NCBI GenBank assembly: GCA_048941285.1
Contig: JBHLNS010000019.1
Location: forward strand, 1 to 51,348
DNA length: 51,348 nt
Source: Promethearchaeota archaeon
GTDB taxonomy: Archaea; Asgardarchaeota; Lokiarchaeia; Sigyniarchaeales; SOKP01
Direction: 5' to 3'
A model generated the notes under the pieces. The model was not told where the DNA came from. It did no database searches and saw only the letters and a list, made by a program, of their open reading frames with translations. This document shows, piece by piece, positions 11,082 to 17,048 of the stretch (position 1 is its first letter; each line of letters opens with the position of its first letter). The position numbers and the translations under genes were made by a program.

Positions 11082-13178
11082 TTAGCTAAAATTATTTTTT
11101 ATTATATCTTCTATTTGATTTAATAAATTTTTATTCGAATATAATTGGTTAAATAACATGTTTATTTGATTTAAATTAGAATCTAATTCCTTTAATGAAT
11201 AGACTCTATAATTTTTTATATCAAATATGGGGATATAAAACTTAAATAGGATTTTTTGTGATTCTACTTTTAAATCTAATAAATCTCGCAAGATATTGTA
11301 ATCTAAATTAGACTTTAGGTAAAATTCATCTAAAAATAGCAATTTTACTAAAGAATTGTTTAAAAAATTGAAAAATTTGAGGTATATATTTATTTTTTTA
11401 TAGTATTTCATGTTAAAGGTCTCTAATTCAGCACTTTTAACACTTTCAGAATTATATGAATCAAGATCATATTTTAACTGTGAAAGTAGTTGCAATATCC
11501 TTCCTAGGTAAGATAAAAATATCGGAAATTTTCTTGGGACTGGTAATCTTTTAACAAAACTGCCGTTGAATCTTAAATAACCTCCAGCCATATGTAGTGT
11601 ACCAAATAATGTTTTGAAGATTATGTCCATGAATGTAGAATTCAAAATAGTCAGAAGACAAAATAATTGATCGGTGTTTAATGAATCAATTTTTATGAAA
11701 TAAAGCCCTGTTATATTTACAAATACACCAGGATCATAGCAAAAAGTCAAATCTTTTCCAATTTCTCTAAAAATTAGTTTTTCGCTATTAAGATTTTTCC
11801 AAATTTGCTCAAAATTAGAACGATAATTAAAATATGAAACTATGATGTTTTTGCCTGCAATTTTTATTCTTTTGCTAAATTTAACATAATATTTATCAAT
11901 ATTGCCTGTACCAATTAACAACAAGTCATCGTCTGATTTAGGTTTATCGCTTATATTATCAAAAAATTTGCTATATTTTAAGAAACCAAAAGGCCGATAT
12001 ATAATTTTTAAATCTTTATAGGTTTCTGCCAGTGATTCGAAGTGTTTATATATGTATGTTATTAATTTTATATTTCCTGAAATTGGAATAACTCTTGATG
12101 GTAATTCATTAATTATCTTTTGATCGAATTTTATTATCATATTTCTTTTATATTCAATTAACTCGTTCATATGATTCACTTTTTTAATAGTTACCTCTTT
12201 TTCCTTGTTAGTTTTATCCTTTTTTAATGATAGAATAATTGGGTACGTAGAGGTCTTTTGAAATATGGGTAAAGATGATATATTTATGATTTCTTTTATT
12301 GCTGTTTCATTTGATAATAATAATCTCACTTTAAAGCCATAATCTGCAGATAAAAATTTATTAGGTAAAACAAATGAAAGAAACCCATTTTTTTCTAATA
12401 ATTCTAAAGATTTCTCAATAAAAATAATTGAAAGATCAAATAAACCATAAGCTGTTTTATATCTCTTGGTTATCTTTTTTTTTAACTCCTTATCCTTAAT
12501 CTTTTTATTTTCTACATAAGGAGGATTTCCAATTATTATGTCGAATTTATCAATATTAAAGTCGAATAGAAAATCAAGGTTGAAAAGATTAAATTTAAGA
12601 TCGAGTTTTTCTATCATTTGGTGAATAATCTTGAGACTTAAATTTTTAGTGTTTAAGTTATGAAAGATTTGATCGTTCATATCAGTGGATATAAGCCATT
12701 TAAATAATCTCAATTTTGAAATATTAATAGCTGATTTTTCAATTTCAATTCCATAGAGGTTTTTCTGAATTATTTTTTTTTTAATATCGACACTAGATAA
12801 TTCAGGTTCTACTTTTTGATAAATTTTATATAATTCTTCAGCTATAGATATTAAAAATCTCCCAGAACCACAAGATGGGTCTAAAATCTTTATACTTTTT
12901 ATTTTTTTATTTAAATTTTCTTTATTTTTCTGACTTTTGACTAATTGATTAAATGCTTCTTTTAAGTTAGTTTCAATTTTGAAAATATTCAGAGAATTAA
13001 AAAACTCTTTAAAATATAATTTGAAAATATTAGAAACCATCTGATCTACTAATTGATTTGGTGTATATATTATACCAAGATTACGATCACTATCTTTTCC
13101 AAAGAGTTTTTTATTTTCAAAACTCTCAATTTGCTTTTCAATAAAACTTAATAAATTTTGAGCTAATTTTTTATCCAT
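11082..13178 (-). CDS. N6-adenine DNA methyltransferase, Eco57I/TaqI-like (gamma class), no nuclease domain seen
   Basis: GIIYTP (motif X), DPSCGSG (motif I), GNPPY (motif IV), TaqI_C-like LLTILNS...KRLPVP. Confidence 0.88.
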   Translation of the reverse strand: MDKKLAQNLLSFIEKQIESFENKKLFGKDSDRNLGIIYTPNQLVDQMVSNIFKLYFKEFFNSLNIFKIETNLKEAFNQLVKSQKNKENLNKKIKSIKILDPSCGSGRFLISIAEELYKIYQKVEPELSSVDIKKKIIQKNLYGIEIEKSAINISKLRLFKWLISTDMNDQIFHNLNTKNLSLKIIHQMIEKLDLKFNLFNLDFLFDFNIDKFDIIIGNPPYVENKKIKDKELKKKITKRYKTAYGLFDLSIIFIEKSLELLEKNGFLSFVLPNKFLSADYGFKVRLLLSNETAIKEIINISSLPIFQKTSTYPIILSLKKDKTNKEKEVTIKKVNHMNELIEYKRNMIIKFDQKIINELPSRVIPISGNIKLITYIYKHFESLAETYKDLKIIYRPFGFLKYSKFFDNISDKPKSDDDLLLIGTGNIDKYYVKFSKRIKIAGKNIIVSYFNYRSNFEQIWKNLNSEKLIFREIGKDLTFCYDPGVFVNITGLYFIKIDSLNTDQLFCLLTILNSTFMDIIFKTLFGTLHMAGGYLRFNGSFVKRLPVPRKFPIFLSYLGRILQLLSQLKYDLDSYNSESVKSAELETFNMKYYKKINIYLKFFNFLNNSLVKLLFLDEFYLKSNLDYNILRDLLDLKVESQKILFKFYIPIFDIKNYRVYSLKELDSNLNQINMLFNQLYSNKNLLNQIEDIIKNNFS

Positions 13179-15265: not shown

Positions 15266-16141
15266 TCAACTATAAAATGATTGAATAATTTCGTCTATAT
15301 TGCTTTGAATTTTATACTTTTTCTGAAAATAATTACAAATATTCTCAATATCCCTGGCTAAAAGCGAATTGGCATTGGGATGATCAGTTGGAACCCACTG
15401 CAGCCAATCGATTATTAATATGTTACCTTTTTGGCCTATTACTATGTTAAATTCACCTAAATCCCCATGAATCATATTTGCTTTTTTAAATATTATTTTA
15501 TATTGCTTTATTATTCTTTTGAATATTTTTAAAGGTTTATTTATACGTTTATAATAAACCAATTCCTTACCTCTTAAATATGACATTATGATTATATGTC
15601 TGTTATATCCTATTGGTTTTGGAGTATTTAAATTGAGTTCATATATCTTTTCAAGAGCTTCATATTCTTTTTTAGCAGCAAGCCTATTAATGTAAAGCCA
15701 AGATAAATGTCCTCTTTCTCCAATGATGTCTCTTAATTGTTTGATACTTTTAAAGCTTGTTCGCCCCATTCGATAAAATTTTGCTGCATAAATGTTTTTT
15801 TCGTCATCCATGCAACTATAAACATCTGACTCTTTGCCCTTACCTATGAGTGGCCCCAACTGACTGATTATATTTTTTTCAACGAGCGTATGCAACGCAA
15901 GTAAATCATATGCCTTAGAATTGAGAGTGTATGCAATTTCATGTTTAGAGGCATCTCTAATAATTAAATCAAATTTGTGAACTCTTTTTAGACGGAAAAG
16001 TGTTTCTTCCATCTTGTAGCGAGAATAGAACTTAATGTTATTTACAGTTACAAACTCTGATCTTTTCATCCCAATCTCAATTGCCATAAGTATTCTAAGA
16101 TCTTCCTTTTCAAGTTTGGTAAGAAGGCTTGCTACTTGCAA
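15266..16141 (-). CDS. rio2: RIO2-type atypical protein kinase with N-terminal winged helix
   Basis: GKGKESDVY, KFYRMGRTSF, IHGDLGEFNI, IIDWLQ. Confidence 0.93.
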   Translation of the reverse strand: MQVASLLTKLEKEDLRILMAIEIGMKRSEFVTVNNIKFYSRYKMEETLFRLKRVHKFDLIIRDASKHEIAYTLNSKAYDLLALHTLVEKNIISQLGPLIGKGKESDVYSCMDDEKNIYAAKFYRMGRTSFKSIKQLRDIIGERGHLSWLYINRLAAKKEYEALEKIYELNLNTPKPIGYNRHIIIMSYLRGKELVYYKRINKPLKIFKRIIKQYKIIFKKANMIHGDLGEFNIVIGQKGNILIIDWLQWVPTDHPNANSLLARDIENICNYFQKKYKIQSNIDEIIQSFYS

Positions 16142-16152
16142 AGTATTTCCAG

Positions 16153-16935
16153 CTAAAAAATGAATTTTCGATATGTTTTGAAAAAAGATGTTAATTTATA
16201 TATATTTGGTATTTCAAAAATCAATAATGCTATAAAATTCAACAGTAAAAAGTTGAAAATATCTTTTTGTAATATTTGATAAGTGGTTGATGTTTCTTCT
16301 TGGAATAAGAATAAAAAGATCCCTTGGTTTAGGTAAAGAATCAACCCGATTGAAATAATCATACTGTTTATTGAAAGTATGATAACTTGATTTTCATACT
16401 CTATTATTCCAATCATTATATTAATAGAAAAAAATATTAATGTAATCAGAGTTATTAATTTCGAATTATTTAGCCAATTTGCATAAATCAGTTTACCTAC
16501 TTGATAGTTGCCATTAAAACTTGGCCAAAACATGGATACACTTAAATTAAAAAACGATATGATTGGTAGGATTACTGAAATTATTATTGAAACGCTGTAA
16601 ATCCGTATAGTGGTAAATCTGCTAAATTTTAAATGTTTCTGCTTTCCTAATTTCGTGGATTCTAACAATGAATCAAGTTTATTTTGAATTAAAATAGGGA
16701 AATTCTTCTTTGCCATGACTAATTGAATATTTAAGTTAGGATAGTTAGAAACTAATTGTTTTATTTGTCTATAACCTTTTCTAAAATTTTTTTTTTTGCT
16801 TTTGGGACCGTTCCAAACATAGAGAATTTTGTTGTCCTCATCCAAAATTGCACAAATTTCTTGAGATAGTAAATGGTGTTCCTCTTCGATCCAATGAGAC
16901 TTCGACTCATCAAATATAAATGTTCTTAGCATCAA
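16153..16935 (-). CDS. gelsolin-like N-terminal domain fused to a multi-pass membrane region
   Basis: LLSQEICAILDEDNKILYVWNGPKS matches the gelsolin-repeat pattern (LxSxDxxILD...IYVWxGxxS); about four hydrophobic helices follow. Confidence 0.65.
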   Translation of the reverse strand: MMLRTFIFDESKSHWIEEEHHLLSQEICAILDEDNKILYVWNGPKSKKKNFRKGYRQIKQLVSNYPNLNIQLVMAKKNFPILIQNKLDSLLESTKLGKQKHLKFSRFTTIRIYSVSIIISVILPIISFFNLSVSMFWPSFNGNYQVGKLIYANWLNNSKLITLITLIFFSINIMIGIIEYENQVIILSINSMIISIGLILYLNQGIFLFLFQEETSTTYQILQKDIFNFLLLNFIALLIFEIPNIYKLTSFFKTYRKFIF

Positions 16936-17048
16936 TTATCTACTTAACTTAACTAAATTTAGCTTTTATTTTTTACCATGACAATAAGATAAATTAATAA
17001 AAATTAGCGATATAAGAAATTTCTAACCTTGACTTTATAACCAATATT

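Follow-up and report, generated by a model that had tools for sequence, protein, structure and literature searches.

A gelsolin/cofilin-type domain joined to a four-helix membrane domain in an order of Lokiarchaeia: a plausible membrane-actin linker

Background

How the actin filaments of Asgard archaea are attached to the membrane, and how they push on it, is an open question. We examine in this light a gene in a 51,348-nucleotide (nt) stretch of DNA from a Promethearchaeota archaeon of the Lokiarchaeia order Sigyniarchaeales (assembly GCA_048941285.1, contig JBHLNS010000019.1, positions 1 to 51,348 of the forward strand), which we refer to as the window. The coding sequence lies on the minus strand (16156..16932) and specifies a protein of 259 amino acids (aa). 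A preliminary description of the window, made from its letters and open reading frames (ORFs), had read this protein as a gelsolin-like domain fused to a multi-pass membrane anchor and possibly acting on actin at the membrane. A gelsolin/cofilin-type domain built into the membrane in this way would give these archaea their first candidate for a protein that links actin directly to the membrane. Here we consider in turn what the two parts of the protein are, where the gene occurs, and what it might do.

The Asgard gelsolins defined so far are ProGel, 1DGelX (X being a predicted coiled coil) and 2DGel (PMC7444086, Akil et al. 2020), and all three kinds have been counted in two Lokiarchaeota genomes (PMC9433394). 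The first of these studies reports that Asgard gelsolins with a single domain act as actin regulators in vitro, that ProGel occupies the G1/cofilin site of actin, on which it was crystallized (PDB 7C2F), and that Thor 1DGelX severs actin without calcium dependence (PMC7444086). The preliminary description had taken the known forms to be soluble, in agreement with the literature: the profilins, ProGel, 1DGelX and 2DGel described so far are all soluble regulators. Our literature search, including passages of PMC12962969 and PMC13734099, found no description of an integral-membrane gelsolin in archaea, the published supplementary lists of '1DGelX' proteins, which may hide such proteins, lying outside its coverage.

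Results and discussion

The N-terminal head has a predicted gelsolin-type fold

The N-terminal part of the protein (residues 1-95, 16648..16932; all features of this gene and its flanks are on the minus strand), here termed the head, was modeled together with the rest of the protein by AlphaFold2 with a predicted local distance difference test score (pLDDT) of 84.6. The modeled head consists of strands at residues 2-8, 13-17, 26-31, 36-41 and 70-73, a long helix at residues 47-63 and a second helix that starts at residue 80. Its elements follow one another as in a gelsolin repeat, the fold of which packs a central mixed β-sheet between one long and one shorter helix. A Foldseek comparison placed the Thorarchaeota ProGel first (7c2f_B, E 3.5e-5, TM-score 0.67 normalized by the target), and all 35 matches listed for the model are chains of the gelsolin superfamily. 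VIA, an aligner that does not depend on Foldseek, likewise recovered ProGel (7c2f_D, Z 10.6), with a root-mean-square deviation (rmsd) of 2.5 Å over 84 aligned residues of 88. Independently, we modeled a member that is only about 21% identical to the window protein and is encoded in a closed genome belonging to a different family of the order (pLDDT 91.8; predicted template-modeling score 0.73). This second model has the same architecture and the same best match, ProGel, both by Foldseek (E 8.6e-5, TM-score 0.75, again target-normalized) and by VIA (Z 11.8, rmsd 2.2 Å, 82 of 88 residues aligned). Fold comparison with gelsolin structures, which had been proposed as a check on the reading of the head, thus returns a gelsolin fold with ProGel in first place for both predicted models, and on the strength of these models the head is of the gelsolin/cofilin type.

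The sequence evidence becomes clear at the level of the family. The Pfam Gelsolin model (PF00626) is touched by 22 of 35 close members at E<=1, the best match having an E-value of 1.3e-4. A profile built from these 35 sequences gave 27 matches in the PDB at E<=10, of which 24 belong to the gelsolin family (gelsolin, villin, CapG, adseverin and Asgard gelsolins) and three are RbcX. The corresponding profile of 38 distant members reached villin at 6e-12, gelsolin at 1.5e-8 and ProGel at 8.6e-7, with 34 of its 38 PDB matches at E<=1 being of gelsolin type, and a search of 1.84 billion proteins with the family profile matched a eukaryote-type villin at E 5e-4. The string singled out in the preliminary description, LLSQEICAILDEDNKILYVWNGPKS, corresponds to residues 21-45 of the product. 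D31, W40 and G42 are invariant in all 35 close members; across the whole order G42 is the sole invariant column, a few distant members having Y or F in place of the tryptophan. The W-x-G element has been described as the gelsolin signature following an LD-containing strand (PMC9433394), and the signature has also been called the 'DWG motif' (PMC7444086). The gelsolin repeat is accordingly recognizable in the family by its sequence profiles as well as by its predicted structure, which bears out the original assignment of a gelsolin-like domain.

The membrane domain and its predicted topology

Between the head and the membrane lies a basic linker (residues 96-104, 16621..16647) that is modeled with low confidence (pLDDT <50 for residues 94-103), and the 20 residues ahead of the first transmembrane (TM) helix contain five lysines or arginines. 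The TM helices comprise approximately residues 108-135 (TM1, 16528..16611, with R110 and P123 invariant in the family), 158-178 (TM2, 16399..16461), 183-207 (TM3, 16312..16386) and 225-245 (TM4, 16198..16260, with a FEIPN motif and an E240 that is invariant in the family). TM2 ends in a conserved turn, E178-x-E180-x-Q182, which is predicted to be cytoplasmic, and TM3 leads into a conserved outward loop with the motif LYLNQG.FLFLFQ (residues 199-211). A basic C-terminal tail of residues 246-259 (16156..16197), also predicted to be cytoplasmic, completes the protein. A Kyte-Doolittle scan gave hydrophobic segments at about residues 106-136, 156-180, 181-211 and 220-247, and the AlphaFold model has long helices at 105-135, 147-178, 181-201 and 222-258, along with short β-hairpins predicted in both outer loops. 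Scan and model together confirm the succession of N-terminal domain, long helix and four hydrophobic helices noticed at the outset.

As there are four helices, both ends of the protein should lie on the same side of the membrane. Among 35 members the net charge is +3.6 for the C-terminal tail and +1.0 for the segment before TM1, and the loops after TM1 and TM3 are negative. The N-terminus has neither a hydrophobic segment nor a signal peptide and begins with the first strand of the domain. Because of this charge distribution, interpreted by the positive-inside rule, and because of the missing signal peptide, the head and the C-terminus are both predicted to be cytoplasmic, which is the side on which the preliminary description expected the head.

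The membrane domain is as well conserved as the head (mean column identity 0.68 vs 0.675). Its residues R110, P123, W136, W153, G175, E178, S187, G196, F208, F210, E240 and Y254 are invariant in the window's family, and the C-terminal tail is the most conserved segment (mean column identity 0.83), with on average 3.7 lysines or arginines against 0.1 aspartates or glutamates per sequence. Order-wide, the domain is recognizable only at the outward loop after TM3, as LY.NQG..LF.FQ.GS. The earlier term multi-pass membrane anchor therefore holds insofar as a four-pass membrane domain is fused to the head, whereas 'anchor' undersells a domain that is as conserved as its partner; this conservation, and that of the outward loop, suggests a role beyond anchoring.

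We can assign the membrane domain to no nameable family, which does not imply that its fold is novel. Among 48,161 chains compared by VIA, the membrane domains of both models matched only generic four-helix bundles, mostly designed ones, with Z of 11-15, a range that VIA calls uninformative for helical bundles. The ESM Atlas returned only the domain's own cluster by features and TM-scores <=0.5 by structure, and Pfam and NCBIfam gave nothing consistent.

Some distant members extend beyond the fourth helix. Homologues from the family of genomes here called f3 (L041-L044) have an extra cytoplasmic tail of 35-40 residues at the C-terminus with a conserved SRPTILRDK ... VELKEIE, which is missing from the window's family; we take its ILRD part to be loosely reminiscent of the LKKT-like core of WH2 motifs. 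Two further members, P0121 (384 aa) and P0198 (395 aa), have a longer cytoplasmic C-terminus with a Lys/Glu-rich segment or tandem repeats of about 10 residues (TKPSTTKKPA).

The gene and its distribution

The ORF at 16153..16935 corresponds to a real gene; its extent as first given needs correction, as it takes in the stop codon (16153-16155) and a TTG codon immediately before the ATG. Homologues share a start of the form M-[LIM]-[RK]-T, and since the alignment has all 35 of them starting at this methionine, the ATG at 16932, rather than the upstream TTG, is taken to be the true start. A word-index search yielded 160 homologues (E<=0.01), and nearly all of the 120 that were listed are 256-261 aa long and 45-80% identical to the window protein. 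When the profile was compared exhaustively with 1.84 billion cluster representatives (50% identity), 100 proteins matched at E<=0.001. In 68 of these, 225-395 aa in length, a single match extends over both domains; another 31 are shorter fragments, and the last is a villin-like protein of 807 aa whose C-terminus resembles a headpiece.

A profile of the family was searched against 400 genomes of the phylum. Matches covering both domains are confined to one order of Lokiarchaeia, where they occur in 126 of 153 genomes, namely 111 of 134 in the window's own family f1, the single genome of f2, 11 of 14 in f3 and three of four in f4; the f4 matches cover only part of the profile, and the f4 ORFs have the same layout nonetheless. 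The survey of Asgard genomes advocated in the preliminary description consequently finds the head plus four-helix architecture to be widespread within a single order. Beyond it, the only matches are weak ones to ORFs of about 93-130 aa that resemble ProGel, and a single partial head that is followed by an EamA transporter.

The ratio of nonsynonymous to synonymous substitution rates (dN/dS) was determined for two gap-free pairings with 79%-identical relatives and amounts to 0.11-0.15 for the whole gene, 0.05-0.11 for the head and 0.14-0.17 for the membrane part. Three of the five gap-free pairings tried (L020, L028 and L039) were dropped, being out of register through internal insertions or deletions, with apparent identities of 25-56%. 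Substitution patterns in the two usable pairs indicate that both domains are under purifying selection. It is thus hardly credible that this frame is open by chance, or that an assembly error has joined a gelsolin gene to a membrane gene. An AT-rich genome does favor long spurious ORFs, and a few database entries (P0146, P0182 and L049) are evident chimeras or fragments; against this, the architecture recurs at 257-263 aa in more than 100 genomes, closed single-contig ones included, the low dN/dS is accompanied by conserved synteny, and both structural models are confident. A spurious ORF is ruled out by the 160 homologues, the genome distribution, the synteny and the dN/dS values.

One marine metatranscriptome run contains two read-length contigs identical to the window (16064-16214 and 16263-16413). 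The first, of 151 nt, spans the end of the gene, the following spacer and the start of the downstream gene rio2 with no differences, and is a weak hint of a transcript shared with rio2; the rest of the gene has no cover in this library, and such libraries can carry DNA.

Calcium sites and relationship to known gelsolins

Calcium-binding positions were placed by aligning the head with domain 1 of the 2DGel encoded in the same genome, with the site residues taken, as we assume, from domain G1 of human gelsolin. We take the type II site to consist of an Asp before the central strand and a Glu at the start of the long helix, and the type I site, shared with actin, to involve an Asp at the end of that helix. 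At the position of the type II Asp (W-15), 34 of the 35 close members have D, the sole exception being the window protein with Glu (residue 25, codon 16858-16860). The type II Glu position (W+9) is acidic in none of the 35, being K in 22, R in 10, N in two and S in one, and the type I Asp position (W+21) is hydrophobic (I, V, M, L or F) in all 35. Neither a type II nor a type I site is therefore complete in the window's clade, for which the calcium-site pattern had correctly been called degenerate, and calcium control is probably absent from it. Since the W+9 position is acidic in 15 of 34 distant members and in none of the close ones, the type II site may be ancestral and may have been lost in this clade.

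ProGel is the closest relative of the head among known proteins. It too is a single gelsolin/cofilin-type domain of about 90 aa with the W-x-G signature, and it is the best match by sequence and, for both models, by structure, with an identity of only 21-23% over the domain. ProGel has no calcium sites (PMC7444086), and the window's clade lacks an acidic residue at the type II Glu position; unlike ProGel, however, the window's family keeps an Asp where the 2DGel of the same genome has its type II Asp. The main difference is one of architecture, as ProGel consists of the soluble domain alone, about 90 aa long, whereas at least 150 of the 259 residues of the window protein belong to a four-helix membrane domain. 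In possessing one N-terminal gelsolin domain followed by a non-gelsolin extension, the window protein resembles 1DGelX/GelX, in which domain X is described as a coiled coil (PMC7444086) or as disordered (10.1101/2025.11.30.690169) and is soluble; the extension here is instead made of four hydrophobic helices. Some of the Lokiarchaeota '1DGelX' database entries counted in PMC9433394 could belong to this membrane family.

The domains of Asgard 2DGel (7C2G, 7WHG and 7WHF) are also among the structural matches (7whg_G at Z 9.6, as well as 7c2g_G and 7c2h_G). A 2DGel is, unlike the window protein, a soluble protein with two domains, a WH2-like linker and calcium sites. The eukaryotic gelsolins, villins, CapG and adseverins (PF00626) share the fold, and their homology with the head is detectable by profile; they differ in having three to six repeats, in being regulated by calcium and in being soluble or peripheral, whereas the window protein is without type I and full type II signatures. 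Eukaryotic members of the gelsolin family reach the membrane through phosphatidylinositol 4,5-bisphosphate or partner proteins, and to our knowledge they include no integral-membrane protein and no architecture of this kind.

Proposed function and its alternatives

The architecture, a gelsolin head followed by a four-helix membrane domain, is a near certainty. It is a new architectural variant of the Asgard gelsolins, for which a function as a membrane-actin linker is plausible. The best explanation, in which we have even confidence, is that the protein is an integral-membrane gelsolin-domain protein that brings an actin-binding module to the membrane. The basic, flexible linker, some 10 residues long, would hold the head at the inner face of the membrane, ahead of the four-helix bundle. 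The head could then bind Lokiactin in the cleft that separates subdomains 1 and 3, the site used by ProGel, cofilin and gelsolin domain 1, and so tether, cap or locally remodel filaments beneath the membrane, without canonical calcium control in the window's clade. Membrane anchoring would raise the local concentration of the head, such that even a weak, ProGel-like affinity could suffice for tethering or capping. The genome provides for such a partner, encoding Lokiactin (381 aa, Pfam Actin 440.9 bits) along with three other members of the actin family. It also encodes one 336-aa two-domain gelsolin (2DGel) with a Cys-rich C-terminal end and three single-domain gelsolins with soluble extensions, and Lokiactin is at least 88% identical across the order. 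Actin binding by the head, a putative property suggested by fold and homology, we place at about one in two.

Several observations weigh against this proposal. Taken alone, the window protein has no Pfam match at E<=1, and its sole PDB match by phmmer, ProGel 7c2f_B, is marginal (E 0.007). The affinity of ProGel for rabbit actin is itself very weak, with a dissociation constant of about 337 uM (PMC7444086). Co-immunoprecipitation with Lokiactin from L. ossiferum recovered five gelsolin-homology proteins that are described as soluble types; the same authors note a bias of the procedure against transmembrane proteins (10.1101/2025.11.30.690169). No cytoskeletal genes adjoin the gene in any lineage examined, with the exception of one coiled-coil gelsolin gene about 1.3 kb away. 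One f1 genus has no full-length copy in any of its four genomes (89-100% complete), even by the broader profile, and it keeps Lokiactin in all three genomes searched for it. Two genomes of the window's own genus, 99-100% complete, are likewise without the gene, rio2 there adjoining the oxidoreductase beta gene.

Part of this evidence would fit a head that serves as an interaction module for a partner other than actin, in the manner of the gelsolin-like domain of Sec23/24, the protein then being an adaptor or receptor in the membrane with no connection to the cytoskeleton. A gelsolin fold is not in itself a sign of actin binding, part of the calcium site is missing, the gene context is not cytoskeletal, and the gene has been lost from some genomes in which Lokiactin stays. 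Every significant sequence match, however, is to the actin-binding gelsolin family (villin, gelsolin, CapG, adseverin, ProGel and 2DGel), and the nearest structure, ProGel, was crystallized on actin. No Sec23/24 chain is found among the 35 Foldseek matches listed for either model, nor among the VIA matches listed, which leaves room for a related membership; in Sec23/24 the gelsolin-like domain sits with trunk, zinc-finger and helical domains, none of which the 259-aa window protein has. We regard a non-actin partner as rather unlikely. Should the head prove not to bind actin, the protein would still represent a gelsolin fold reused on a membrane scaffold.

A further alternative shifts the emphasis from the head to the membrane domain, which might be the working part, as a channel, a sensor of the outside or an oligomeric scaffold, with the head coupling it to actin or calcium; the protein would then be a transmembrane signaling or adhesion link and not a passive anchor. 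Such a role would accord with a membrane domain conserved to the same degree as the head, with the invariant polar or charged residues R110, E178, S187 and E240 within the family, with an outward motif kept even in 20%-identical members, with the β-hairpins predicted in both outer loops, and with the conserved or repetitive cytoplasmic tails of distant members. Its charged residues are not conserved outside f1, however, nothing points to oligomerization, and the structural comparisons offer only generic four-helix bundles at an uninformative level and no match in the ESM Atlas, so that we consider this alternative unlikely. A more specific variant, that the protein is a primitive transmembrane link between cytoskeleton and exterior, its outward LYLNQG-FLF-FQ-GS hairpin contacting the S-layer, a substrate or a partner cell and its head holding or capping Lokiactin, we deem quite improbable. 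If true, Lokiarchaeia would have, for their protrusions and crawling motility, a coupling device akin to integrins or focal contacts, and with it a mode of actin-membrane attachment not known in eukaryotes. The head, at 95 residues, can be expressed alone, and homologues are available in closed genomes of an order that includes cultured species.

Gene neighborhood

Downstream, the stop codon is separated by an 11-nt spacer (16142..16152) from the TTG start, at 16141, of rio2 (15266..16141), a RIO-type kinase gene (Pfam RIO1 6.4e-48, Rio2_N 1.8e-18) that is a neighbor and not part of the membrane gelsolin gene; the ORF coordinates agree with the spacing and strand reported at first. Upstream lies an AT-rich intergenic region of 116 nt (16933..17048), which may hold the gene's own promoter, preceded by the genes for the beta, alpha and delta subunits of a 2-oxoacid:ferredoxin oxidoreductase. 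The order oxidoreductase, membrane gelsolin, rio2 is kept in all of the 30 best f1 loci (window included) and in four of four further f1 genera. None of seven loci in f2-f4 carries any of the window's neighbors, and with the adjacency limited to f1, rio2 is rejected as a functional partner. Gene context points to no partner. The f3 loci have a TFB gene before the membrane gelsolin gene in four of four cases and an Eco57I-like methylase gene after it in three of four, and both f4 loci have a ubiquitin-conjugating-enzyme gene nearby.

The two near-complete genomes of the window's own genus that lack the gene, G205 (locus L088) and G183 (L089), have a gap of only about 135-245 nt between the oxidoreductase beta gene and rio2, and L088 retains a 24-codon remnant of the gene start (2436-2507, 58% identity). 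This looks like a recent deletion, and the gene is therefore dispensable. Two loci of g6, the f1 genus without a full-length copy, have a different multi-pass membrane protein of 158-176 aa just upstream of rio2 (L090 822-1349 and L092 883-1356), with no Pfam match and no similarity by tblastn.

An unusual arrangement occurs in genome G058, from another family, where a 378-aa ORF (L049 1829-2962, minus strand) starts inside the gelsolin domain at the IYxWNG strand, continues through the start of TM1 and then becomes an EamA-type transporter (Pfam EamA 2.5e-33); the frame upstream is not gelsolin-like. This ORF may have arisen by gene fusion, may be a remnant, or may reflect a chimeric assembly.

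The window itself contains, about 3 kb from the membrane gelsolin gene, a gene for an Eco57I-like N6-adenine methylase (11085-13178, minus strand; Pfam Eco57I 5.6e-32). A similar gene directly adjoins the homologue in the f3 loci L042-L044, and its proximity may be a trace of older synteny. Lastly, the coiled-coil gelsolin gene at about 1.3 kb from a membrane gelsolin gene is found in genome G279 (L051 5661-6926, plus strand); it encodes a 1DGelX-like protein of 422 aa with an N-terminal gelsolin repeat (Pfam 0.0017) and a charged, coiled-coil-like extension.

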